From UHGV virus genome UHGV-1700184: a stretch of 10,972 nucleotides of DNA; one strand, written 5' to 3'. Of this stretch, positions 1 to 10,972 are shown in pieces. Under the pieces are notes generated by a model. That model made no database searches. It was given only the letters and a program-made list of their open reading frames with translations, and was not told where the DNA came from. The DNA comes from a virus. The number at the start of each line of letters is the position of its first letter. Position 1 is the first letter of the stretch. The position numbers and the translations under genes were made by a program.

Positions 1-22
1 AAGCCGATACATGCCACACGCA

Positions 23-433
23 TTACTCACCTACTTTGATGCGAATGCCTGCGGCGCGGATTGCATCGATGACTTCAGAAACTTTGTATGCCATTACCGT
101 TTGGTAATCCTCGTGAAAATCTGTTCGATGAAGCATGCTGCTACGTTCCGGGAGCAGTATTTCCCGCGCTTCCAGTTCTGCAATGCGCTTTTTTGCTGCT
201 TCCAGTTCATCCAGTAATCCCAGCACGGTATCCGGATTAGCCTTGGCAACAAAATCCCGGACTGGCTTACAATCAATCTCCGCAATGGGTTGATACGATG
301 TGTAGCCATGCTGTCTTGTATAACTACCGTGACGAATAACGAAAAAATCACCATTTATTTTTTTAGCCTGCCACTTATCTTCACCGGCTTTATCTGCCGC
401 TTCACGCAGTGCCTGATAGTTAATTTCGCTCAC
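23..433 (-). CDS. Ead/Ea22-like phage protein (tentative family assignment)
   Basis: Track ORF 23..454 on minus strand. Preferred start is the in-frame GTG at 433..431, preceded by AGGAGG (442-447); the 454 start has no Shine-Dalgarno. Central coiled-coil segment ([17 protein letters not shown]) and position at the far left of the early-left operon resemble lambdoid ead/Ea22 proteins; family call is from memory only. Confidence 0.5.
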
Positions 434-597
434 TGTTTGCCTCCTTTGCGCCACATCGCATTCAGATATTTGTTTTGATTCACTGATGGAAAAGAATTTC
501 TCTTAAGTAATTCCTCTCTCGATGGCATTGGCTTTACGCGTTGGCGAATAATCATTTCTGCCGGAAGAATGCCGGGATTGTATGCAAGTCCTCTCAT
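430..597 (-). CDS. hypothetical small protein, 55 aa
   Basis: Not in the track (under 60 aa). ATG at 597..595 preceded by AAGAGGA; translation [55 protein letters not shown]. Stop TGA overlaps the GTG start of the downstream gene (GTGA), suggesting translational coupling. Confidence 0.45.
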
Positions 598-613
598 GGT
601 AAATTCCTCTTTG

Positions 614-928
614 TTAATTTATTCGTATGCCTGTTCTCTCTTCATCAAGTTTTTTTAGCTTGTATCGCATAGCTCTTACTGAATAAATTGAGCGGCAGGT
701 TGCAATTGCTATTTCTTCTGCGGAGAACTTACCGAAAAGTGATACTTCGGCTCTTGTCCAGCGTCTTCCACGAAGTCGGCTAACAATGTCAGCGCCAATC
801 CTTGTTGCTTTCGCCATTACTGCTTTTTCAGTCCTTTCCAGTTTTTCAGCGATAACTTCAACTGGCATTGTCGCCGCTACTTCGCGCAAGAAATCGACTT
901 CCCATTTCTCCCATGGAGTCTTTTTCAT
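614..928 (-). CDS. hypothetical protein with two tandem HTH-like repeats (putative DNA-binding)
   Basis: Track ORF, 104 aa, ATG at 928. Two internal ~40-aa repeats share a W-x-x-x-E-V and E-I-A pattern ([25 protein letters not shown] / [26 protein letters not shown]) reminiscent of helix-turn-helix units. No clear SD; starts 11 nt after the upstream stop. Confidence 0.6.
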
Positions 929-939
929 AGGCGATACCG

Positions 940-1422
940 TTATTTGATGAGAAGTGAAGGTTTCCCAACTTTGAGTTGAGCACCGGGGATATTTATTCCT
1001 GCTTTTAGTTGGTGTTTGATTGCCAGTTTGTCGGCTTTAATTGTCGTTTCAAACTCAACGTATTCAGGAGGAAGGGCGCTTGAGTCGATGATTTCTACAA
1101 TTTCTGACGGTTTGCGGATTGTTACCTGGTGAATACCTGCTCGAATATTTTTCTTGCCAACCATTTCAAGCGATGACGCTATATATGATTTGATGCTGTC
1201 AATCTTATTTTGAATTACTGCGGCTCGCTCATTTAGTGACTTTGCCTCTTCCTTGAGGCGTTCAGCATAACCAGATTCGTTTTTAATGACGGAAAGAAGT
1301 TGCTCTATTTTATCGGTAAATTCTCCTTCCATGCCTTCTATTGTGTCAGCAATCATCTCTGGCTCTAAATCTGAATCCATCAGCTTTGCGTATTCATTGG
1401 CTATTTCATACAGTTTGCTCAC
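940..1422 (-). CDS. Siphovirus Gp157-family protein
   Basis: Track ORF 940..1428 (TTG start). Preferred start is GTG at 1422..1420, preceded by GGAGG at a 6-nt spacer. Sits immediately downstream of recT and overlaps its 3' end, the usual Gp157 context; family call from memory. Confidence 0.65.
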   Translation of the reverse strand: MSKLYEIANEYAKLMDSDLEPEMIADTIEGMEGEFTDKIEQLLSVIKNESGYAERLKEEAKSLNERAAVIQNKIDSIKSYIASSLEMVGKKNIRAGIHQVTIRKPSEIVEIIDSSALPPEYVEFETTIKADKLAIKHQLKAGINIPGAQLKVGKPSLLIK

Positions 1423-2308
1423 TGGCAACCTCCAGTTTCGCTTTGCATTCTATGTAAATGGCTTGTACGTTCTGCTGCAATTTCATTCCAGATGTCAGGC
1501 GATATGCTTCTGCAAAATATCGCTTCAAATCATCCATGTTTTCTGCCTGAGCCATTTCATCGCAAAGAAGTTGTGCTTTATCCATTATTTCCTGCTGGCG
1601 TTTCCGTTCATCTTCGCGGATATCTTCCTCTGATTTGTGCGGCATAACTGGTTCCTGATGCATACCTTCATCTTCGTTAAGCAGGTGAATGGCATTATCC
1701 AGTCGCTGGGCTTTAGGCCAGTATTTGCTGGCGCGTTTAACTATTGTTTTACGCGCCATCTCTTCCCAGAATGTCTTCCACGGTCCATTCTTTGCCTTGC
1801 TCGTTGCTTCCACAGCTTTAATTTCTGCCAGACTCATTTCTTCAGTGAGGTAGTCACCATCTGCTGTTTTAACCGTACAATAACCACCAACAATAGAGCC
1901 TCGCTCACCAAATGCGTTGTATTTGTGGGTTGGTGCTGAATCAAGGCCGTTTGATTCATAGGTGTCGTTTGAGTACACCAGTTTGCATTGCCCCCACTTA
2001 ATTGATCCTGTCGACTGTGCAAGGTGAAGTAATCCCATATAGCTGATATCAAGGCAAACCATGCCGTCGCGCGGAACTAGATAAGCAAGTTTGCTGGCCG
2101 GGTTTAAGGTGATGCCGATCGCCGCAACATTGATGATGGCGTTCTGTGCGCTGGTTGGATTTGCCAGTGCCGTTTTAGCCAGGTAATCGTTTTTCTGGAA
2201 ATACTGAATTGCAAACTGGCTTTCCTTAGCCCATGTCACCGTCTGTTCAGTCAATGCTCCGCAGAATAACTGCTCCTGCTGTTTAACGAATTCAACGATA
2301 TTGCTCAT
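1406..2308 (-). CDS. recT: RecT-family single-strand annealing recombinase
   Basis: Track ORF, 300 aa, ATG at 2308 preceded by GGAGAA. Length, charged C-terminal tail and overall sequence are typical of phage RecT/Redbeta-superfamily annealing proteins; start overlaps the upstream stop (ATGA). Confidence 0.9.
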   Translation of the reverse strand: MSNIVEFVKQQEQLFCGALTEQTVTWAKESQFAIQYFQKNDYLAKTALANPTSAQNAIINVAAIGITLNPASKLAYLVPRDGMVCLDISYMGLLHLAQSTGSIKWGQCKLVYSNDTYESNGLDSAPTHKYNAFGERGSIVGGYCTVKTADGDYLTEEMSLAEIKAVEATSKAKNGPWKTFWEEMARKTIVKRASKYWPKAQRLDNAIHLLNEDEGMHQEPVMPHKSEEDIREDERKRQQEIMDKAQLLCDEMAQAENMDDLKRYFAEAYRLTSGMKLQQNVQAIYIECKAKLEVASEQTV

Positions 2309-2616
2309 GCTGCTTCTCCAAAAATGTGTCTGCGCTTGAATATTGCGAAGGCATATTCAGCCTTAACTCTTTCGGTTATTGCATCCCAGAACCATTCAGC
2401 GGCTTTTTCCTGATAGTTACAGTCATCATCTTCCAGCCAGTCGATAGCGTCCTTAGTGTGTTCATCTGGTTTATATGAGCGAAGCATTTCGCTTATTGGG
2501 TCGCAACGTTTGCAGAGGCGATCAACTTCACTGTTGATTCGCTCGTAATCTTCATCAGTAAAACTTGCGATTATTTGCGATATTTCACGCTTATCATTCA
2601 GAGTCAGAATCATCAT
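2305..2616 (-). CDS. hypothetical protein, 103 aa (occupies the gam-equivalent position)
   Basis: Track ORF; two adjacent ATGs (2616 and 2613) follow AGGAGA. Stop overlaps recT start. No recognisable family; acidic, Trp-rich C-terminal half. Confidence 0.7.
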   Translation of the reverse strand: MMILTLNDKREISQIIASFTDEDYERINSEVDRLCKRCDPISEMLRSYKPDEHTKDAIDWLEDDDCNYQEKAAEWFWDAITERVKAEYAFAIFKRRHIFGEAA

Positions 2617-2701
2617 CTTTCTCCTGTTCTTTGTGCTGATTGAGCATTTTGTTCATCTGACGAATGAATTCTTCGTCTGACCAGTTATCTGTAAAACTCA
2701 T
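2594..2701 (-). CDS. hypothetical small acidic protein, 35 aa
   Basis: ATG at 2701..2699 overlaps the stop of the upstream Kil-like ORF (ATGA); translation MSFTDNWSDEEFIRQMNKMLNQHKEQEKDDDSDSE; 3' end overlaps the start of the 103-aa gene. Coding status is uncertain. Confidence 0.3.
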   Translation of the reverse strand: MSFTDNWSDEEFIRQMNKMLNQHKEQEKDDDSDSE

Positions 2702-2850
2702 TTCCTGCGATACCACGGAAGGTTGATAGCTGATTTCATCGCTTTATTTGCTTCAAGCCACATTTTTGAATCACCAATAAATCTGGCTATTACTGCTTTG
2801 TTCTGTGCAGCACGAAGCATCTGGTGATTGATGGCTATTTCATTGCGCAT
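2698..2850 (-). CDS. kil: Kil-like small protein (possible host cell-division inhibitor), 50 aa
   Basis: ATG at 2850..2848; translation MRNEIAINHQMLRAAQNKAVIARFIGDSKMWLEANKAMKSAINLPWYRRK. Lies immediately downstream of cIII as in lambda, and the FIGD-x-KM motif resembles lambda Kil as I recall it; unverified. Confidence 0.45.
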   Translation of the reverse strand: MRNEIAINHQMLRAAQNKAVIARFIGDSKMWLEANKAMKSAINLPWYRRK

Positions 2851-2966
2851 AATAAGACCTCAACTCTTTTCCATCCGTCACGTAATTTACGGGTGATTCG
2901 TTCAAGTAAAGATTCATTTAATTGGAAGGCACCCATGCGAGCGCCTCCCGCGATTGCGTAAATCAT
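2835..2966 (-). CDS. cIII: CIII-like regulator (FtsH protease inhibitor that stabilises CII)
   Basis: ATG at 2966..2964 preceded by AAGGAA; translation MIYAIAGGARMGAFQLNESLLERITRKLRDGWKRVEVLLCAMK. The core ESLLERITRKLRDGWKR matches the amphipathic helix of lambda CIII as I recall it. At 43 aa it is shorter than lambda CIII (54 aa). Confidence 0.7.
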   Translation of the reverse strand: MIYAIAGGARMGAFQLNESLLERITRKLRDGWKRVEVLLCAMK

Positions 2967-2990
2967 GGGTGGTTCCTTATGTTGGTTTTA

Positions 2991-3959
2991 TTAGTAGGTT
3001 ATTTTTGTTGCGAATACTTCGCCTTTTACGATGGCTGTTATGATATTTTTAGCAACATCTTCTGATGCGCCAACCTTGATAAGGTCAGCAAGTATTTTGT
3101 TATTTACTTCTTTCCGGTGAGCTTTATCCTTTGCTCTACACTCTTCCTCTTCCTTGATTCTTTTTTCTTCTGCTATTCTGGCTTGCTCTTTTGCTTCAGC
3201 CTCGCGCCGGATTCGTTCAGCCTCCTCCTGTGCTTTTCGGCGTTCTGCTTCAATTGCCGCCTGCTTTTCTCTTTCAGCTCGTTCTGCTGCCTCTTTTGCT
3301 TCGCGCTGTGCTCGTTGCTCAGCTTCAATGCGTTCACGCTCTGCACGTTCCGCTGCGGCCTTAGCTTCTGCTTCTCGCCTTGCTGCTGCTTCAATTTCGG
3401 CTTTTGCCTTTGCTTCGGCTTCTGCTCTGGCTTTCTCTTCAGCTTCTCTTTTTAAGCGTTCTTCATGCTCTCGCTTTTCCTGCTCCGCTTTGAGTCTTGC
3501 CTCTTCTCTTTGGCGGTCAAATTCGCGATCCATCAAAATCGCTATTTCATGGTCAGACTCAATTTGCTTTGCGAGAGCTTCAGCTGCTGCCTTAGCTTCT
3601 TCTTCGGCTTTAATCCGCGCCTGTTCCTCTTCATAATCAGTAAGAGGCTGGCGTGCCTTGGCTTTCAGCTCATCAAGGCGATCACGCACTGTCTTGCGGT
3701 TAGCATCAATTAGCTTTGGAATTTCCTTCAGTTCAGCAACAAGGTCTTTGCCAAGACCATCGAGATATGTTTTCGTCTGCGCAACTTTATACGCCAGAGA
3801 AGCGATCTCCTTTCTGCCCTTTGCCGTTGTGATATCAGGCACAAAGGACATAACTTCACGTTCAACCTTTTGAAGGATTTCTTCAATCTGGTCGGCAGAC
3901 TGAAATACAGTCATTGCATTTGCTTTTTCAATAACAACTAAATCTGTTACTTCACTCAT
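2991..3959 (-). CDS. phage coiled-coil protein with a long E/R/K/A-rich single-helix segment
   Basis: Track ORF, 322 aa, ATG at 3959 preceded by GGAGG. A globular N-terminal ~110 aa is followed by ~170 aa of near-pure E/A/K/R repeats (AEAEAKAKAEIEAAARREAEAKAAAERAERERIEAEQRAQREAKE) and a short C-terminal domain. The DNA is strongly strand-asymmetric low complexity, which creates spurious ORFs in other frames. Confidence 0.8.
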   Translation of the reverse strand: MSEVTDLVVIEKANAMTVFQSADQIEEILQKVEREVMSFVPDITTAKGRKEIASLAYKVAQTKTYLDGLGKDLVAELKEIPKLIDANRKTVRDRLDELKAKARQPLTDYEEEQARIKAEEEAKAAAEALAKQIESDHEIAILMDREFDRQREEARLKAEQEKREHEERLKREAEEKARAEAEAKAKAEIEAAARREAEAKAAAERAERERIEAEQRAQREAKEAAERAEREKQAAIEAERRKAQEEAERIRREAEAKEQARIAEEKRIKEEEECRAKDKAHRKEVNNKILADLIKVGASEDVAKNIITAIVKGEVFATKITY

Positions 3960-3994
3960 ATATCCTCCTTAATTTGTATGCGTCAAATCCGCGC

Positions 3995-4306
3995 TCAGGC
4001 TGCTGAGGTTTCTTCTTTCAGGCTTTCGATATATTTACGTGGGTCGTCGTAACATTGGCATTCGCTGTACCAATCTACCCAGCGATCCGTAAGCTCCATC
4101 TCTGATAAATCTTCATCAGTAAGGCTCTCATCCCACATCTCAAGGCCGTTAGCATTGCAGTAGTCAGGCTTGATGTTGTTGTCATACTGAAAGGCATCAT
4201 AATCAGCCAGTGCATCCATCAGGCGAACACCCTCTTCAACACTTGCCACTTCTACAATGAACGGCTTCATAGGTACTTGCGGGATATGCCAGACACGTAA
4301 TTTCAT
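3995..4306 (-). CDS. hypothetical acidic protein, 103 aa
   Basis: Track ORF 3995..4402, but the supported start is ATG at 4306..4304 (MKLRVWHIPQ...) with GGAGG 4 nt upstream; the ATG at 4402 has SD spacing of only 2 nt and would read through a terminator hairpin. C-terminal half is rich in D/E/W/Y. Confidence 0.7.
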   Translation of the reverse strand: MKLRVWHIPQVPMKPFIVEVASVEEGVRLMDALADYDAFQYDNNIKPDYCNANGLEMWDESLTDEDLSEMELTDRWVDWYSECQCYDDPRKYIESLKEETSAA

Positions 4307-4318
4307 ATTTCCTCCGTC

Positions 4319-4346
4319 AAAAAAAATCGCCCTCACACTGGAGGGC
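4319..4346 (-). terminator. intrinsic terminator candidate (minus-strand sense)
   Basis: Stem GCCCTC (4329-4334) / GAGGGC (4341-4346) with a 6-nt loop, followed on the minus strand by eight T (complement of A 4319-4326). Lies directly upstream of the RBS of the 103-aa gene. Confidence 0.6.
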
Positions 4347-4408
4347 AAAGAAGATTTCCAACAATCAGAACAAGTCGGCTCCTGTTTAGTTACGAGCGAC
4401 ATTGCTCC

Positions 4409-4436
4409 GTGTATTCACTCGTTGGAATGAATACAC
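4409..4436. repeat. perfect 9-bp inverted repeat with 10-nt spacer
   Basis: GTGTATTCA (4409-4417) ... TGAATACAC (4428-4436), in the ~115-bp segment between two minus-strand terminators. Confidence 0.7.
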
Positions 4437-4463
4437 AGTGCAGTGTTTATTCTGTTGTTTATG

Positions 4464-4491
4464 CCAAAAATAAAGGCCGACTATGCGGCCT
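4464..4491 (-). terminator. intrinsic terminator downstream of the membrane-protein gene
   Basis: Stem AGGCCG (4474-4479) / CGGCCT (4486-4491) followed on the minus strand by TTTATTTTTGG (complement of 4464-4473); 5 nt after the stop at 4496-4498. Confidence 0.65.
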
Positions 4492-4495
4492 GAAA

Positions 4496-4945
4496 TTACT
4501 TAACCAATGATGCTGCATATTCGATAAGGTAAAGCTTTGGGGCCAGCCAAATTTTTAACCAAGTCATATTGGTTACTACACCAATAATAAAAATCCCCCA
4601 CAGAGTCAAAACTCCAACCAATGGCATGATAAGAAGATTAATATCACCTTTGCTATCCCAAACCATTGTCGGCCTGTATTTGGGATTTCCTTTCTCCCAT
4701 GAATATCCTTCATCACCGATTTTACCTGTCTCAACTCTTTGGCACTGCTTCTTCATAAACCAGAAAACCAGTGGGATTGTTAGAATGGCCATTAATGTTT
4801 TAATCAGACTGTCAACCATATTCCATAGCAGCAACTGATGAACAACATCAGGAATCTGTGCCTGGCTAAATGAAACAGCCGCGTCTATTCCATTACTGGC
4901 TTTTTGCAGTAGTTCTACGAGAATCTTGTTTGCTTGTTCTTCCAT
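4496..4945 (-). CDS. small integral membrane protein, 149 aa, two predicted TM helices (candidate superinfection-exclusion or abortive-infection cargo)
   Basis: Track ORF; ATG at 4945 preceded by AGGTGA. Hydrophobic stretches LIKTLMAILTIPLVFWFM and INLLIMPLVGVLTLWGIFIIGVV. By eye the DNA is markedly AT-richer than its neighbours. Has its own terminator, and lies in the N-to-cIII interval where lambdoid phages carry accessory genes such as sieB. Confidence 0.8.
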   Translation of the reverse strand: MEEQANKILVELLQKASNGIDAAVSFSQAQIPDVVHQLLLWNMVDSLIKTLMAILTIPLVFWFMKKQCQRVETGKIGDEGYSWEKGNPKYRPTMVWDSKGDINLLIMPLVGVLTLWGIFIIGVVTNMTWLKIWLAPKLYLIEYAASLVK

Positions 4946-4954
4946 ATATCACCT
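4937..4954. repeat. 18-nt direct repeat, copy A (RBS and start of the membrane-protein gene)
   Basis: TTCTTCCATATATCACCT at 4937-4954 is identical to 5163-5180; on the minus strand both read AGGTGATATATGGAAGAA (SD, ATG, Glu, Glu). Confidence 0.85.
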
Positions 4955-4959
4955 TGATT

Positions 4960-4995
4960 GTAATAAGCATGAAATTATTTACGGACAAAAATAAA
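4960..4995 (-). promoter_or_regulatory. candidate promoter for the membrane-protein gene
   Basis: Minus-strand TTGTCC, 17 nt, TATTAC about 10-45 nt upstream of the RBS; both hexamers are only 4/6 matches, so this is weak. Confidence 0.25.
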
Positions 4996-5084
4996 GGCCA
5001 CCATCAGGCAGCCTTGTAGTTCTGTTTACCAAGTTCTCTGGCAATCATTGTCGTCGTTCGTATTGTCCACACCATTGATTCTTA

Positions 5085-5171
5085 TCAATAGTCGTAGTCA
5101 TACGGATAGTCCTGGTATTGTTCCATCACATCCTGCGGATGCTCTTCGAACTCTTCAAATTCTTCTTCCAT
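5085..5171 (-). CDS. hypothetical acidic, aromatic-rich peptide, 28 aa
   Basis: ATG at 5171..5169 preceded by GAGGTG; translation MEEEFEEFEEHPQDVMEQYQDYPYDYDY. Shares its RBS and first codons exactly with the downstream membrane-protein gene (18-nt repeat). Confidence 0.35.
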   Translation of the reverse strand: MEEEFEEFEEHPQDVMEQYQDYPYDYDY

Positions 5172-5180
5172 ATATCACCT
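5163..5180. repeat. 18-nt direct repeat, copy B (RBS and start of the 28-aa acidic ORF)
   Basis: Identical to 4937-4954. Confidence 0.85.
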
Positions 5181-5280
5181 CAAATAAGTGTTTTGCTGCC
5201 TAATTTCATTTTCTGGCGACCAACACAAGTCACCTCCATTTCACTGCGTGGCTTGCGGTAGTAAATTAGGTTTGTTCAGA

Positions 5281-5304
5281 CAATAAAAAACCCACCGAAG
5301 TGGG
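5281..5304 (-). terminator. intrinsic terminator after the N-coupled gene
   Basis: Stem CCCAC (5291-5295) / GTGGG (5300-5304) with loop CGAA, followed on the minus strand by TTTTTTATTG; abuts the stop at 5305-5307. Confidence 0.65.
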
Positions 5305-5643
5305 CTATGACCATTTTTTATTTGGATTTCGTTGGTGAGCGTGATTAACAACTCTGTGCATTACATCCTCATATTTTTCATCTTCAATTTTTTCGACATC
5401 GCGAGGAAATGGTGTTGCTAATGCTTTGTCAACTTTGTCCATTGGTTCTTCATTAATCTTATATTCAGGACCGTCATCTATAGCATTAAATCCAGGTGTT
5501 ACACCGTTTTTTAATGCATATGCTATCCTTTTTTCCCATCTCGCTATTCTCCTCCTGTCTCGAGATGTAAGACCTCTATCAGATACTTTTCTGTTTTGTC
5601 CGCGGTCAGGATTAACATAAATAGTCTTTTTCACCATAAGCAT
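5305..5643 (-). CDS. hypothetical basic/acidic protein translationally coupled to N, about 112 aa
   Basis: Track ORF 5305..5649 uses a TTG; the first ATG is 5643..5641, 2 nt after the N stop. Arginine-rich segment SRDRRRIARWEKRIA followed by an acidic C-terminal half. No family recognised. Confidence 0.6.
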   Translation of the reverse strand: MLMVKKTIYVNPDRGQNRKVSDRGLTSRDRRRIARWEKRIAYALKNGVTPGFNAIDDGPEYKINEEPMDKVDKALATPFPRDVEKIEDEKYEDVMHRVVNHAHQRNPNKKWS

Positions 5644-5645
5644 AC

Positions 5646-5951
5646 TCAATAAGCACCGTACGGTAGTTTACTGTACAATTTTATTTTTTGGACTGCATGT
5701 ATTTTGTTTCCTAATGGGTTTGAATCTTTGTAATAAATACTTCTATTTTTTCGAACGACTTCTTCTTTCTTCTTGCAGCAAAGGCTTCCTAGTGATGCTG
5801 CTTTGTCTGCTCTGACGCAACCAGAGAGCTTTAGCGCAATTTTTCGCGCCAGTGCTTCATTACTGCGTCGCTCGGCAATAAGTTCTGCTCTGCGAGCTTT
5901 GTAGCGGCTTTTTGCCGTACCTTTGGATTCTTTCCAGACAATGGTTACCAT
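5646..5951 (-). CDS. N: N-family transcription antitermination protein (phage-21 type)
   Basis: Track ORF 5646..5981; preferred start is ATG at 5951..5949 (MVTIVWKESKGTAKSRYKARRAELIAERR) with AAGGAG 6 nt upstream. GTAKSRYKARRAELIAERR matches the arginine-rich boxB-binding peptide of phage 21 N as I recall it. Cognate boxA/boxB lie upstream. Confidence 0.85.
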   Translation of the reverse strand: MVTIVWKESKGTAKSRYKARRAELIAERRSNEALARKIALKLSGCVRADKAASLGSLCCKKKEEVVRKNRSIYYKDSNPLGNKIHAVQKIKLYSKLPYGAY

Positions 5952-6058
5952 GATGGTCTCCTTTAAGTGGCTTTGGCGCATGACGCGTCGAGGTGCTTAT
6001 CTTCTCGATCGCTGTCTTGCAGCTGCAATTCGCGCCATCCCCAAAACCACTCAAGTTC

Positions 6059-6102
6059 TGGTCTCAACGGTTAGGTTGAGAGTCCGTCGATGTTAAAGAG
6101 CC
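6059..6102 (-). promoter_or_regulatory. nutL: nutL (boxA plus boxB hairpin)
   Basis: Read on the minus strand: boxA GGCTCTTTAACA (complement of 6091-6102), a near-perfect match to the boxA consensus, then 9 nt, then boxB hairpin TCTCAAC-CTAACC-GTTGAGA (complement of 6062-6081) with a 7-bp stem. Sits between pL and N. Confidence 0.8.
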
Positions 6103-6139
6103 TGCCAATCTGTTCCGTTTGGCTTCCAGCGTCCTGCTG

Positions 6140-6215
6140 ATGGCTTAAATTTAAGACTTCTTAATTTATTGGTCAAGTGCATTTTTGAAGAAAACTTAAT
6201 TTTATGGGCGTGAAT
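6140..6215 (-). promoter_or_regulatory. pL promoter with overlapping OL operator sites
   Basis: Minus-strand TTGACC (complement of 6171-6176), ~17 nt, TAAATT/TTAAAT. Palindromic operator TTAAGA-CT-TCTTAA at 6151-6164 overlaps the -10; a second imperfect palindrome TTGAAGAAAACTTAA lies near 6185-6200. Half-sites match those in OR. Confidence 0.6.
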
Positions 6216-6245
6216 TTAGTTTGTCTTTGATTTTTAACGGGAAAT

Positions 6246-6266
6246 AAAAAAAGGGGCGAAAGCCCC
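6246..6266 (-). terminator. intrinsic terminator directly after the repressor gene
   Basis: Stem GGGGC (6253-6257) / GCCCC (6262-6266) with loop GAAA, followed on the minus strand by TTTTTTT ATTT (complement of 6242-6252); adjoins the cI stop at 6267-6269. Confidence 0.75.
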
Positions 6267-6917
6267 TTAAGGAAGGTTTGCTAGCTTGGCATCAACGACA
6301 ACGCCAATGATTTTACAGTTCCCATTGATTTCAATCATTGGGTATTGTGGATTGAGTGGTTTCAGGAATTTTCTACCGGCATCAATAACTAACTTTTTGA
6401 ATGTCGCCTCGTTTTCTCCTTCAAGTTTGGCGACTACCAGCTTTCCATTACGTGGTTCGACTTCTGGGTCGACGAGAATAATCATCCCCTCAGGAATACT
6501 CAGTCCTGCCGGGGCAGTCATTGAATCGCCTTTAACGTCGAGCCAAAAAGAGTCTTCAGAACAATCTACCGTTGTGTCGTACCAGTTATCTATTGCACGC
6601 CTATGATATGGCTCTACAGCTTCCATCCAACATCCTGCGCTTACCCAACTAATTAGAGGATACGAACCTCTTGGATCATGCCTGCTGTGATAGGCAATGT
6701 TTGAAAGACTATCCTCTCCTTTCAACAGGTAATCAGGGGAGCACTGCAAAGCCTTGGCTAAGGCCAATAGGTTTTCGCCATTGGGCTCAGTTTCAGATCG
6801 CTCCCATTGGGAAATAGCAACATTAGACACGCCAACCATCTTGCCAAGGGCAGCCTGCCTAATCTTGAGTTCTTTTCTGCGAGCGCGAATACGCTCACCC
6901 ATCAGTTGTGTATTCAT
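6267..6917 (-). CDS. cI: CI/C2-type prophage repressor (N-terminal HTH, C-terminal S24 LexA-like autopeptidase domain)
   Basis: Track ORF, 216 aa, ATG at 6917. HTH segment QAALGKMVGVSNVAISQWERSE; C-terminal domain carries the catalytic-type GDSM serine motif and a downstream lysine (VVAKLEGE). The N-terminal domain closely resembles P22 C2 repressor as I recall it. Confidence 0.9.
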   Translation of the reverse strand: MNTQLMGERIRARRKELKIRQAALGKMVGVSNVAISQWERSETEPNGENLLALAKALQCSPDYLLKGEDSLSNIAYHSRHDPRGSYPLISWVSAGCWMEAVEPYHRRAIDNWYDTTVDCSEDSFWLDVKGDSMTAPAGLSIPEGMIILVDPEVEPRNGKLVVAKLEGENEATFKKLVIDAGRKFLKPLNPQYPMIEINGNCKIIGVVVDAKLANLP

Positions 6918-6997
6918 AGTTAAGACATCTTAAATAAACTTGACTTAAGATTCCTTTGGTGAATAATTTAAGTGTTCTTTAATTTCGGAGCGAGTCT
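6918..6997. promoter_or_regulatory. OR operator region with divergent pR and pRM
   Basis: Perfect palindrome TTAAGA-CA-TCTTAA at 6920-6933, abutting the cI start. A further operator-like site ATTTAAGTGTTCTTTAAT (6966-6983) overlaps the pR -10 region; pR -35 TTGACT at 6939-6944. Confidence 0.7.
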
Positions 6998-7183
6998 ATG
7001 TACAAAAAAGATGTTATTGACCACTTCGGAACCCAGCGTGCTGTTGCTAAAGCACTAGGCATTAGCGATGCAGCAGTCTCTCAGTGGAAAGAAGTTATCC
7101 CAGAGAAAGACGCCTATCGATTGGAAATCGTTACAGCTGGCGCCCTGAAGTATCAAGAAAGTGCTTACCGCCAAGCGGCATAA
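6998..7183 (+). CDS. cro: Cro repressor (P22-type)
   Basis: Track ORF, 61 aa, ATG at 6998 preceded by GGAG at a 7-nt spacer. MYKKDVIDHFGTQRAVAKALGISDAAVSQWKEVIPEKDAYRLEIVTAGALKYQ matches P22 Cro as I recall it. First gene of the rightward operon. Confidence 0.9.
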   Translation: MYKKDVIDHFGTQRAVAKALGISDAAVSQWKEVIPEKDAYRLEIVTAGALKYQESAYRQAA

Positions 7184-7189
7184 GCAAAT

Positions 7190-7231
7190 TGCTCTTTAAC
7201 AGTTCTGGCCTTTCACCTCTAACCGGGTGAG
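7190..7231 (+). promoter_or_regulatory. nutR: nutR (boxA plus boxB hairpin)
   Basis: boxA TGCTCTTTAACA at 7190-7201, then ~10 nt, then hairpin TCACC-TCTAACCG-GGTGA at 7213-7230. The loop shares CTAACC with nutL boxB and spacing is the same. Confidence 0.7.
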
Positions 7232-7298
7232 CAAACATCAGCGGCAAATCCATTGGGTGTGCCGCTATAACTCAATATCAATATAGGAAAATTAACAA

Positions 7299-7595
7299 AT
7301 GGCACAAGCAAGCTACAGCAAGCCAACACAGCGAGAAATTGATCGCGCTGAAACTGATTTACTCATCAACCTGTCAACGCTTACCCAGCGCGGTCTGGCA
7401 AAGATGATTGGCTGTCATGAATCGAAGATAAGCAGAACGGACTGGAGATTTATTGCTTCGGTCTTGTGTGCTTTCGGAATGGCATCAGACATCAGTCCGA
7501 TTAGCAGGGCTTTTAAGTATGCGCTTGATGAAATCACAAAGAAAAAATCCCCGGCCGCCACCGAGGATTTTAAGCAAATTGATATGCAATTCTGA
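7299..7595 (+). CDS. cII: CII-like transcriptional activator
   Basis: Track ORF, 98 aa, preceded by AGGAAA. HTH region and C-terminal KKKSPAATEDFKQIDMQF parallel lambda CII (KKRPAATERSEQIQMEF as I recall it). Confidence 0.85.
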   Translation: MAQASYSKPTQREIDRAETDLLINLSTLTQRGLAKMIGCHESKISRTDWRFIASVLCAFGMASDISPISRAFKYALDEITKKKSPAATEDFKQIDMQF

Positions 7596-7617
7596 GGGAA
7601 TTACTGGATCAATCCAC
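7538..7617 (-). ncRNA. oop: OOP-like antisense RNA candidate overlapping the 3' end of cII
   Basis: Minus-strand hairpin across 7548-7567 (GC-rich stem with one G-U wobble that is a C-A mismatch on the plus strand), followed by a U-tract (complement of A-run 7541-7547). A -10-like CATAAT lies on the minus strand at 7625-7630, predicting a ~77-nt RNA, the same size and place as lambda OOP. Confidence 0.35.
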
Positions 7618-7627
7618 AGGAGTAATT

Positions 7628-7789
7628 ATGACAAAACGTCGTAAGAAATACCAGGAAAAAGAAGAGATTCGACACCCTGATTCACCTGAGGGATTAGTGG
7701 TAGCCGCAGCAAATAACAGGGCGTTCGCAGAGCGCCTTGTTGGTGTTTACAGACTAGCCAAAGCAGGAGTGAAACATGGGCGTCGTTAA
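7628..7789 (+). CDS. hypothetical small basic protein, 53 aa, between cII and O
   Basis: ATG at 7628 preceded by AGGAG at a 5-nt spacer; translation [53 protein letters not shown]; overlaps the O start by 14 nt. Not in the track (under 60 aa). Confidence 0.4.
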   Translation: MTKRRKKYQEKEEIRHPDSPEGLVVAAANNRAFAERLVGVYRLAKAGVKHGRR

Positions 7790-8597
7790 GTTAGCTGATT
7801 ACAGGCCTCAACTGGAGGTCGTGGAGCATCGCGTGGCAGATACCGAAGATGGTTTCATGCGCGTTGCTAACGAGATTACCGACAGTCTGCTGATGGCTGA
7901 TTTAACCGTCCGGCAGTTGAAGGTGATGCTCGCTATCATGCGCAAGACATACGGATTCAATAAGCCGATGGATCGACTCACAAACACGCAGATAGCAGCC
8001 ATGACAGGTATTCATCACACTCATGTTTGCGCTGCCAAGCGCCAGCTTATCGAGCGTAAATTCCTCATTGCTGATGGCGTGAAAATCGGAGTGAACAAGG
8101 TGGTTTCTCAGTGGATTAGCCAGGACAGCTTAACATTAGCTAAAACAGCTAATAAAACATTAGCCAAGTCGGCTAATGGGTATAAGCCAAGTCAGCTAAA
8201 CACAAAAGACAATATACAAAAGACAATAAATACAAATACCCCCTTACCCCCTAACGGGGGCGGCGATGGGCAGGTTAAACCTGAACGTCGCAAGGCAGAA
8301 CGAATCGACTATGAATCCTTCCTGAACGCCTACAACACCGAAGTCGGTGACAGACTGCCACACGCTGTTGCGGTCAACGAGAAACGCAAACGCCGCCTGA
8401 AGAAAATCATCCCGCAACTGAAAACGCCAAACGTGGACGGTTTCAGAGCGTATGTCAGGGCGTTTGTGCATCAGGCCAAGCCGTTTTACTTCGGAGACAA
8501 CGACACTGGCTGGACGGCAGATTTTGATTACCTGCTGAGGGAAGATTCGTTAACGGGAGTACGGGAAGGGAAGTTTGCAGACAGGGGGATTGCATGA
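7776..8597 (+). CDS. O: O-like replication initiation protein (replisome organiser)
   Basis: Track ORF, 273 aa, ATG at 7776 preceded by AGGAG. N-terminal HTH-type domain, a low-complexity linker encoded by the iteron DNA, and a conserved phage C-terminal domain. Stop overlaps the helicase start (ATGA). Confidence 0.85.
8116..8240. repeat. origin of replication: four palindromic iterons plus an AT-rich tract inside the O gene
   Basis: Iterons at 8116-8133 (TTAGCCAGGACAGCTTAA), 8136-8152 (TTAGCTAAAACAGCTAA), 8160-8176 (TTAGCCAAGTCGGCTAA) and 8183-8199 (TAAGCCAAGTCAGCTAA), spaced 20-24 bp, followed by A-rich 8200-8240 containing CAAAAGACAATA twice. Same architecture as lambda ori. Confidence 0.75.
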
Positions 8598-9970
8598 GAC
8601 AGGATATCGAAGCGAGCGTTATCGGTGGCTTGCTGATTGGTGGATTAACACCAACTGCCAGTGACGTTCTGGCAACGCTGGAGCCGGAAGCGTTTTCAAT
8701 TCCGCTCTACCGGAAAGCCTTCGAGGTTATCCGCAAGCAGGCGAGAAACAGAAACCTAATCGACGCGCTGATGGTTGCCGAGGCGTGCGGAGAGGAGCAT
8801 TTCACGTCAATCCTGATGACCAGCAAAAACTGCCCGAGTGCCGCAAACCTGAAGGGATATGCCGGAATGGTCGCGGATAACTATCACCGCCGTCTGGTGC
8901 TGGAAATCATGGATGAAATGCGTGAACCAATTCAGAGCGGAACCATCGACGCATCGAGTCAGGCGATGGATGAACTTGTAAAGCGTCTTTCAGCCATCAG
9001 AAAGCCACGTGACGAGGTTAAACCGGTACGGTTAGGGGAAATCATCACCGACTACACTGACACGCTTGACAGGCGTCTGAGGAACGGAGAAGAGTCAGAT
9101 ACCCTGAAGACCGGAATCGAAGAACTTGATGCCATCACCGGAGGGATGAACGCGGAAGACCTGGTGATAATCGCTGCTCGTCCTGGTATGGGGAAAACCG
9201 AACTGGCGCTGAAGATTGCCGAAGGCGTTGCAAGCCGCGTTATTCCTGGTTCTGACGTCCGGCGCGGAGTGTTGATTTTCTCGATGGAAATGAGCGCATT
9301 GCAGATCGCAGAGCGAAGCATTGCCAACGCCGGGAGGATGTCGGTTAGCGTACTGCGAAATCCTGCATCGATGGATGACGAGGGCTGGGCACGTGTTGCT
9401 AACGGAATGAGTCAGCTTGCAGATTTGGATGTATGGGTGGTCGATGCCTCGCGGTTATCGGTCGAAGAAATACGCTCAATCGCAGAACGGCACAAACAGG
9501 AAAATCCAAACCTCTCACTCATCATGGCGGATTATCTTGGCCTGATTGAGAAGCCGAAAGCAGATCGCAACGACCTCGCAATTGCTCACATCTCCGGAAG
9601 CCTGAAGGCGATGGCGAAAGACCTGAAAACGCCAGTAATCTCCCTGAGTCAGCTTTCGCGCGATGTTGAGAAGCGACCAAATAAACGCCCGACAAACGCA
9701 GATTTGCGTGATTCAGGAAGCATTGAACAGGACGCAGACTCAATCATCATGCTCTATCGGGAGGCGGTATATGACGAGAACAGTAGCGCCGCGCCATTTG
9801 CTGAAATCATTGTGACGAAAAACCGTTTTGGCTCGCTTGGTACGGTTTACCAGCGGTTCTGCAACGGACACTTTGTTGCATGTGACCAGGATGAAGCCAG
9901 ACAGATTTGCACAACATCAAATGCACCTGCTGCGCGTGGCAGACGATATGCACAAGGGGCTGACGTATGA
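8594..9970 (+). CDS. DnaB-family replicative DNA helicase
   Basis: Track ORF, 458 aa. Walker A motif [12 protein letters not shown] in a RecA-like C-terminal domain, plus a DnaB-type N-terminal domain. Occupies the lambda P position; P22-type phages encode their own helicase here. Confidence 0.9.
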
Positions 9971-10047
9971 CCATCTACATCACTGAGCTAATAACAGGCC
10001 TGCTGGTAATCGCAGGCCTTTTTATTTGGGGGAGAGGGAAGTCATGA
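9967..10047 (+). CDS. hypothetical hydrophobic peptide, 26 aa (coding status uncertain)
   Basis: ATG at 9967 overlaps the helicase stop (ATGA) and its stop overlaps the ninB start; translation [26 protein letters not shown] has a single TM-like segment. The same DNA contains the tR2-like terminator hairpin. Confidence 0.3.
9996..10028 (+). terminator. intrinsic terminator (tR2-like) between the replication genes and the nin region
   Basis: Perfect 8-bp stem AGGCCTGC (9996-10003) / GCAGGCCT (10012-10019) with an 8-nt loop, followed by TTTTATTTG. Confidence 0.7.
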
Positions 10048-10484
10048 AAAAGCTAACCTTTGAAATTCGATCTCCAGCACATCAGCAAAATGCTATTCAC
10101 GCGGTACAGCAAATTCTTCCAGACCCAACCAAACCAATCGTAGTAACCATTCAGGAACGCAACCGCAGCTTAGACCAAAACCGAAAGCTTTGGGCTTGCC
10201 TTGGTGACGTCTCTCGTCAGGTTGAATGGCATGGTCGCTGGCTGGATGCAGAAAGCTGGAAGTGTGTGTTTACCGCAGCATTAAAGCAGCAGGATGTTGT
10301 TCCTAACCTTGCCGGGAATGGCTTTGTGGTAATAGGCCAGTCAACCAGCAGGATGCGTGTAAGCGAATTTGCGGAGCTATTAGAGCTTATACAGGCATTC
10401 GGTACAGAACGTGGCGTTAAGTGGTCAGACGAAGCGCGACTGGCTCTGGAGTGGAAATCGCGATGGGGAGACCGGGCAGCATGA
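10044..10484 (+). CDS. ninB: NinB (Orf-family recombination mediator)
   Basis: Track ORF 10026..10484 uses a TTG; preferred start is ATG at 10044 ([23 protein letters not shown]...) preceded by GGAGAGGGAA. Near-identical to lambda NinB as I recall it. Confidence 0.85.
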
Positions 10485-10654
10485 TGCGATGTTATCGGTG
10501 CGGTGAATGCAAAGAAGATAACCGCTTCCGACCAAATCAACCTTACTGGAATCGATGGTGTCTCCGGTGTGAAAGAACACCAACAGGGGTGTTACCACTA
10601 CCGCAGGAAAAGGAGGACGTGTGGCGAGACAGCGACGAAGTATCACCGACATAA
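10481..10654 (+). CDS. ninD: NinD-like small zinc-ribbon protein, 57 aa
   Basis: ATG at 10481 overlaps the ninB stop (ATGA); [34 protein letters not shown] carries two CxxC pairs. The track ORF 10421..10654 is the same frame with an upstream extension. Confidence 0.7.
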
Positions 10655-10797
10655 TCTGCGAAAACTGCAAATACCTTCCAACGAAACGCTCCAGAAATAA
10701 ACGCAAGCCAATCCCAAAAGAATCTGACGTAAAAACCTTCAACTACACGGCTCACCTGTGGGATATCCGGTGGCTAAGACATCGTGCGAGGAAATGA
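10621..10797 (+). CDS. ninE: NinE-like small basic protein, 58 aa
   Basis: GTG at 10621 preceded by AGGAGG at a 4-nt spacer; translation (M)[57 protein letters not shown], resembling lambda NinE from memory. Overlaps the ninD 3' end in another frame. Confidence 0.6.
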
Positions 10798-10972
10798 CAA
10801 TGGATTATTCACAGTTAAGTGATTTTGAAATTAACTTAAAAATCGCGCATATCGTGCTAGGAAAAAACAATTACGACTGGGATCCAGAAAAGAAAGAAGT
10901 TTGCTTGGCTGGAATTGATGGTGGTGAGTTTTTGCCTTGTGGATATTTCGACCCATGTAATAGGGCCGCTGA
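10794..10972 (+). CDS. nin-region hypothetical protein, 3'-truncated by the window end (possibly NinX-like)
   Basis: ATG at 10794 overlaps the ninE stop (ATGA); open to the window edge: [59 protein letters not shown]. Absent from the track because it has no stop in the window. Confidence 0.55.

Follow-up and report, generated by a model that had tools for sequence, protein, structure and literature searches.

Antitermination and immunity are encoded side by side at positions 5646–7231 of the window, by which we mean the whole stretch of 10,972 nucleotides analysed here. The question that this locus raises is whether the two specificities were brought together by recombination in this sequence or came as one unit from a single known phage. 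The first-pass annotation had proposed that they were recombined here, with N and nut sites of the phage 21 type joined to a repressor, Cro, and operators of the P22 type. We characterized each component in turn, and then compared the interval as a whole with phage 21, P22, and other relatives.

Organization of the window

The window corresponds to a lambdoid phage early region. Its left arm contains RecT, a Mu Gam-like protein, a gp17-like exclusion gene, and nun, and its right arm contains a P22-type gene 18/DnaB-type helicase replication module. The genes considered below are as follows.

5305–5643, minus strand: nun, HK022-type transcription termination (lambda exclusion) factor, in the same leftward operon as N
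5646–5951, minus strand: N, antitermination protein (101 aa)
6267–6917, minus strand: cI, LexA-like repressor (216 aa)
6998–7183, plus strand: cro (61 aa, P22_Cro family)
7299–7595, plus strand: cII activator (98 aa; PF05269, E = 2.7e-33)
7776–8597, plus strand: O-like initiator
8594–9970, plus strand: DnaB-type helicase

No single record spanning all 10,972 bases was found among the phage records and E. coli genomes searched; phage Kapi1 accounted for 65% of the window and one E. coli chromosome for 73%, the highest values in either collection. Taken as a whole, the phage thus combines known modules in a new way, as lambdoid phages usually do. An Rfam scan of the window gave nothing relevant, the sole match being a chance snoRNA (E = 0.8).

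N protein and nut sites

The N frame was read from an ATG that is preceded by a good Shine-Dalgarno sequence and gives a protein of 101 aa; a further ATG occurs upstream at 5981 in the open reading frame listing. Residues 8–29 of N, ESKGTAKSRYKARRAELIAERR, are identical at 22 of 22 positions to chain A of PDB 1NYB (“Probable regulatory protein N”), which we take to be the complex of the phage 21 N peptide with boxB. Residues 1–57 are identical to phage 21 N, and identity over the whole protein is 78.6%. The identity of N to P22 gp24 is 34%, and the arginine-rich motifs of the two proteins differ. The Pfam N_peptide model matched N weakly, under its curated cut-off.

The elements of the two nut sites are as follows.

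6094–6101, minus strand: nutL boxA, GCTCTTTAAC; maps onto phage 21 boxA-L and is conserved with P22
6062–6081, minus strand: nutL boxB hairpin, UCUCAAC-CUAACC-GUUGAGA, 7-bp stem; folded, and maps onto the phage 21 nutL stem-loop
7191–7198, plus strand: nutR boxA, GCTCTTTAAC; maps onto phage 21 boxA-R
7213–7230, plus strand: nutR boxB hairpin, UCACCU-CUAACC-GGGUGA, 6-bp stem; folded, and maps onto phage 21 nutR

The CUAACC hexaloop is common to both boxB hairpins, boxA lies 5′ of each, and the arrangement of boxA and CUAACC boxB is found downstream of both pL and pR. In three-way alignments, both boxB sequences were identical to those of phage 21 nutL and nutR and were not alignable with the P22 boxB. 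The arginine-rich peptide of phage 21 and the CTAACC loop shared by the two nut sites, both noticed in the first-pass annotation, are thus borne out by the match to 1NYB and by the folding of both hairpins. The N motif and the boxA and boxB elements indicate an N/nut antitermination system of the phage 21 type, for which read-through is predicted.

Repressor, Cro, operators, and promoters

The cI protein comprises HTH_3 and Peptidase_S24 domains (Pfam) and is LexA-like and self-cleaving by homology. Its N-terminal domain matches PDB 1ADR/2R1J, and 202 of its 216 residues (93.5%) are identical to those of P22 C2. Relative to the P22 c2 chain 1ADR (residues 1–76), residues 1–67 contain two substitutions, K16E and S54A, and the remaining differences are all in the linker (residues 68–75). 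Cro (PF14549, E = 5.7e-28) is identical to that of phage 21 at 61 of 61 residues and to that of P22 at 60 of 61 (98.4%). The control sites around these two genes are as follows.

6149–6166, 6184–6201, and 6213–6230, unstranded: OL1, OL2, and OL3, 18-bp operators of the P22/21 type (pattern matches, phage 21 annotation, and near-identity to P22 OL)
6918–6935, 6943–6961, and 6966–6983, unstranded: OR3, OR2, and OR1 (pattern matches and phage 21 annotation)
6148–6176, minus strand: pL, TTGACC, 17-nt spacer, TAAATT (consensus scan); overlaps OL1
6940–6967, plus strand: pR, TTGACT, 16-nt spacer, AATAAT (consensus scan)
6250–6268, minus strand: intrinsic terminator just 3′ of the cI stop codon (terminator scan; annotated in phage 21)
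7308–7321, minus strand: pRE/CII site, TTGC-N6-TTGC (mapped from the phage 21 annotation)

The pL start annotated in phage 21 maps to about 6141. The exact motif TTAAGA-NN-TCTTAA occurs at 6151–6164 (OL1 core) and 6920–6933 (OR3 core), with degenerate copies at 6186–6199, 6945–6958, and 6968–6981; the operators have TTAAG-N4-CTTAA cores, three at each of OL and OR. Over the OR interval, 7 of 106 positions are unlike P22. With a repressor combining HTH and S24 domains, a Cro of the P22_Cro family, and 18-bp operators, the locus belongs to the repressor-operator family of P22 C2 and phage 21 cI, as the first-pass annotation had recognized from the repressor, Cro, and the operator motif.

The repressors of phage 21 and P22 are alike and probably share operator specificity. 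In the literature that we searched, no explicit statement of a repressor specificity common to P22 and phage 21 was found. Poteete et al. reportedly compared the operator regions of the two phages in 1980, and Franklin (1985, J Mol Biol 181:75) is said to have compared N/nut in lambda, phage 21, and P22, with differing N specificities.

Comparison with phage 21

In a megablast search of phage records with 5200–7700, positions 5729–7635 of the window were matched in one piece, at 97.7%, by phage 21 (OL657228), lambda imm21, and the DE3 prophage, and a separate blastn search gave the same single colinear phage 21 alignment. Between 5782 and 7529, the window and phage 21 differ at 6 of 1748 bp (99.7% identity), and the differences are evenly spread. 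In the left part they number 2 in 170 (5′ part of N), 1 in 149 (nutL), 1 in 166 (pL/OL), and 0 in 651 (cI); in the right part they number 1 in 80 (OR), 0 in 186 (cro), 1 in 115 (nutR), and 0 in 231 (5′ part of cII). As these per-segment counts are uniform, N/nut and the repressor, cro, and operators are equally related to phage 21. Identity drops to approximately 76% only left of 5781, from about codon 58 of N on, and right of 7530, from about codon 78 of cII on. The right-hand joint lies inside cII at about 7530, where residues 1–77 are identical and the C-terminus is different.

The nutL, boxA-L, OL1–3, OR1–3, boxA-R, and nutR annotations of the phage 21 record map exactly onto the features of the window. 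In that record cI is annotated from an internal Met, giving 190 aa, although the 216-aa frame is open there and identical. The order of genes is the same in both from N codons 1–57 through cII codon 77, whereas N is followed by ral in phage 21 and by nun in the window, and the flanking recombination and replication modules of phage 21 are unlike those of the window. The OL-cI-OR-cro segment is colinear with and near-identical to that of phage 21, without a breakpoint, which assigns it to imm21. As repressor and operators match those of phage 21, a lysogen would be predicted to show immunity to lambda imm21.

Phage 21 immunity is also carried by laboratory material, and the match of lambda imm21 and DE3 to 5729–7635 at 97.7% raises the possibility that the sequence derives from lambda imm21 or from the DE3 prophage of BL21(DE3). 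This origin is scarcely credible, since the flanks are non-lambda, the 3′ ends of N and cII are not those of phage 21, and coverage of the window by any one record stops at 65% among phages and 73% among E. coli genomes. A laboratory lambda imm21 or DE3 origin was rejected on the basis of the flanks.

These results indicate that the interval is almost certainly the natural early regulatory region of coliphage 21 (imm21 with N/nut), carried in a lambdoid phage or prophage of E. coli.

Comparison with P22

P22 aligned to the window at 6087–7201 only, with 83.5% nucleotide identity (blastn). In the three-way alignment, the similarity includes the cI terminator, OL, pL, and boxA-L at the left and is lost at boxB-L; at the right it extends through cro and the cro stop codon to boxA-R and disappears at boxB-R. 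The right-hand limit is approximately 18 bp 3′ of the cro stop codon (7181–7183), just beyond boxA-R. The junction at nutR had been placed within about 10 bp of that stop codon, which is correct as to its closeness and too short as to the distance. P22 immC has the same architecture, nearly identical operators, and a conserved boxA, whereas gp24, boxB, and c1 differ; the identity between P22 c1 and cII is 21%.

A similarity to P22 that is confined to 6087–7201 and breaks off, at either end, in the space separating boxA from boxB, together with the identity of cI (93.5%) and Cro (98.4%) to the P22 proteins, is consistent with a recent recombination event joining immC from P22 to phage 21 N/nut, with the joints beside the nut sites. 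However, we consider such an event very unlikely. The cI and cro genes are 100% identical in nucleotide sequence to those of phage 21 and only 81% and 90% identical, respectively, to those of P22, and the phage 21 alignment crosses both supposed joints with its divergence unchanged. Moreover, the same arrangement is found in lambda imm21, DE3, mEp235, HK629, and hundreds of E. coli genomes. Comparison of cI with P22 c2 gave a dS of approximately 2.0, which is saturated, and a dN/dS of 0.02; the dS of cro against P22 cro was 0.6. These values indicate that the immunity modules of the P22 and phage 21 types are old relatives without recent exchange, kept alike by selection on their proteins and operators. 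The dS of approximately 2 also excludes the public phage 21 sequences as recent recombinants with P22. A recent derivation from P22 is likewise not upheld by the overall identities (83.5% to P22 versus 99.7% to phage 21), and recent recombination between P22 and phage 21 was rejected on the per-segment difference counts and dS.

Because all parts align colinearly to coliphage 21, the proposal that the two specificities were recombined here fails: N, the nut sites, the repressor, and cro are all from phage 21, in one alignment that runs from N through cII without a breakpoint. The two observations from which the proposal had been built, N/nut of the phage 21 type and a P22-like repressor, Cro, and operators, are both correct. 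The combination of this N/nut system with P22-like immunity is already known, as in phage 21 itself. The mosaic exists only as a comparison of phage 21 with P22, in which it is ancient, and the recent history of the sequence involved no recombination between N/nut and immunity.

C-terminal half of N and the pR −10 element

Outside the part shared with phage 21, N carries another C-terminal allele from residue 58 on, which is approximately 49% identical to that of phage 21 over the last 41 aligned residues; the joint lies inside the gene at about 5781–5790. We regard N as a natural chimera of the phage 21 RNA-binding half and a different C-terminal allele, which is a mildly new reading, and assume that N functions with the altered C-terminus. 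A published precedent is provided by the N-like proteins of phage L and P22 (gp24), which coincide at the N-terminus, have unrelated C-termini, and are functionally interchangeable. The second distinctive position is 6962 in the pR −10 element, where the window has A, whereas phage 21, mEp235, and P22 all have G.

An imm21-like sequence with altered specificity or function could be postulated from either feature, as N residues 58–101 are unlike phage 21 and the base at 6962 departs from all three phages. Such an alteration is highly improbable, since the RNA-binding motif, boxB, boxA, repressor, Cro, and operator cores are all unchanged, and the plaque-forming phages mEp235, mEpX1, and Kapi1 have the same N allele. 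The change at 6962 turns GATAAT into AATAAT, and the consensus T at that position is absent from both.

Predicted regulation

The identity of these components with characterized components of phage 21 and P22 suggests the following course of regulation. In the lysogen, cI would bind the three 18-bp operators at each of OL and OR and shut off pL and pR. RecA-stimulated self-cleavage of cI through its S24 domain, as in SOS induction, would leave pL and pR active, and Cro would then occupy the same operators as cI. The pL transcript is predicted to carry nutL and to encode N, and the pR transcript to carry nutR. The arginine-rich motif of N would bind the CUAACC-loop boxB of nutL and nutR, and N, with boxA and host Nus factors, would allow RNA polymerase to read through downstream terminators. 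Action of cII at TTGC-N6-TTGC (7308–7321) would turn on pRE and lead to lysogeny.

Relatives and exchange points

A close phage relative over this region is mEp235 (JQ182731), which is 99.5% identical to the window over 5179–7637, including nun, the N allele, imm21, and cII. This phage is already annotated with Nun, N, a repressor similar to P22 C2, and a Cro similar to P22 Cro. Outside 5179–7637 it shares only short patches with the window, and its recombination and replication modules are unlike those of the window. Among 5426 complete E. coli genomes, 436 contain at least 80% of 5646–7300 in one place, and the identity in E. coli HS is 99.9%.

Pairings of N/nut with immunity that differ from that of phage 21 do occur, in CUS-3 and in PA28 and a group of Stx1a phages, and not in the window. 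CUS-3 has a cI-cro of the 21/P22 type (85% nucleotide identity to the window), whereas its N joins a phage 21-like C-terminal half to a different arginine-rich motif (DDNARNRRRARRQAQ), and the loops of its two boxB hairpins are of the GAAA type. PA28 and the Stx1a phages share 5169–6142 (nun, N, and nutL; 90.8%) and 7171–7635 (nutR and cII; 92.9%) with the window and have boxB loops of CUAACC and CUAACA, whereas an unrelated OL-repressor-OR-cro cassette takes the place of 6143 to 7170.

The exchange points in these comparisons are the gap between boxA and boxB (phage 21 versus P22), the boundaries of the OL-cI-OR-cro cassette (against PA28), and the middle of N. The mid-N exchange, between the RNA-binding and C-terminal halves, is seen against phage 21, HK022, and CUS-3.

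nun and the N remnant of HK022

The Nun protein of the window is identical at 107 of 109 residues to chain N of PDB 6ALG (HK022 Nun), and its residues 22–47 match 1HJI_B. The similarity is full-length and includes the arginine-rich motif and the C-terminal RNA polymerase-arrest segment, so that the protein is assigned to HK022 Nun. HK022 Nun binds lambda boxB and arrests RNA polymerase, which blocks lambda (PMC5386594). In the set of 5426 complete E. coli genomes, nun, N, and nutL (5288–6110) are found together in 211.

HK022 and O276 match 5288–5763 of the window at 97.1%, a segment that contains nun and the last 37 or so codons of the N allele. In HK022, the N remnant consists of approximately 37 codons upstream of nun with 97% identity, its stop codon TGA is changed to TGG, and it lies directly 3′ of putL and a terminator-like hairpin. 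HK022, which uses put RNA, has no N, so this segment is a relic. The O276 record, which is HK022-derived, has the −10 and −35 elements of a nun promoter annotated inside the N relic; the window has identical bases, within the N frame, near 5670–5675 and 5693–5698 on the minus strand. Work by King et al. in 2000 is said to concern nun promoters in a repressed prophage.

As a tentative reading, which we would put at somewhat below an even chance, the N-independent arrangement of HK022 might have arisen from an ancestor with both N and nun, putL having replaced nutL and the 5′ part of N.

Significance

For annotation, the consequence is that the appropriate label for the stretch is imm21 with an N/nut system of the phage 21 type, and not a new hybrid. 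Beyond this correction its significance is small, the locus being a textbook lambdoid control region. The exchange points around it are resolved to the base level and agree with the established mosaicism of lambdoid phages.

Arrangement of N and nun

In the window, an HK022-type nun lies immediately 3' of the N stop codon, and 107 of the 109 residues compared are identical to PDB 6ALG chain N. The window retains the -10 and -35 bases that the phage O276 annotation assigns to the nun promoter, and here they fall within the N coding sequence.

5305-5643, minus strand: nun, HK022-type
about 5670-5675, minus strand: nun promoter -10 (TACAGT, with TG ahead), per the O276 annotation
about 5693-5698, minus strand: nun promoter -35, per the same annotation

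The phage thus has genes for both the antiterminator N and Nun, the factor that excludes lambda. The combination of nun, N, and nutL was present in 211 of the 5426 complete E. coli genomes.

Comparison with phage 21

The N protein is chimeric with respect to that of phage 21: residues 1-57 are identical, whereas the sequence from residue 58 onward represents another allele that is about 49% identical. At the other end, the 3' end of cII (window 7530-7635) shows 75.5% identity to phage 21, and the C-terminus reads KKKSPAATEDFKQIDMQF in the window and KKKRPVCKTERSEQIQMEF in phage 21. The phage 21-like block has its right joint here.

about 5781-5790, minus strand: left joint inside N, within window 5729-5790

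In pR, a single base differs at window 6962, the first position of the -10 hexamer, which is AATAAT in the window and GATAAT in phage 21, mEp235, and P22. The cI gene of the phage 21 record OL657228 (3038-3610 of its locus) is annotated from an internal Met as a 190-aa product; the full 216-aa frame is, however, open in phage 21, identical to that of the window, and colinear with P22 C2.

Flanking arms

No record spanned the entire window (1-10972), and the best reached 65% (phage Kapi1) and 73% (E. coli MLI108K3). The right arm contains a P22-type gene 18/12 replication module (about 83% to P22). The left arm encodes RecT and a Mu Gam-like protein, as well as the following:

2991-3959: 322-aa Glu/Ala/Lys-rich coiled-coil protein
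3995-4402: P22 gp17-like exclusion gene

Related phages

CUS-3 pairs a 21/P22-type cI-cro with an N (1481-1780 of its locus) that has a different arginine-rich motif (DDNARNRRRARRQAQ), and the boxB hairpins of both nut sites have GAAA-type loops (CCCGCCGAAATGCGGG). In CUS-3, N/boxB specificity has truly been reassorted relative to the immunity type of the window.

In the N-nun stretch of PA28 (1604-2249 of its locus), nun looks disrupted, since the N reading frame continues beyond the position of the N stop codon in the window and the annotated Nun ORF comprises only the C-terminal 45 residues.

HK022 (AF069308) is without an N gene. Upstream of its nun, however, are the final ~37 codons of exactly the N allele of the window, with 97% identity and the stop codon changed from TGA to TGG.

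1551-1676 of the HK022 locus: N-allele relic; counterpart at window 5646-5763, minus strand

The relic sits a short way downstream of putL. Together these features suggest an ancestor that had both N and nun and in which putL took the place of nutL along with the 5' portion of N.
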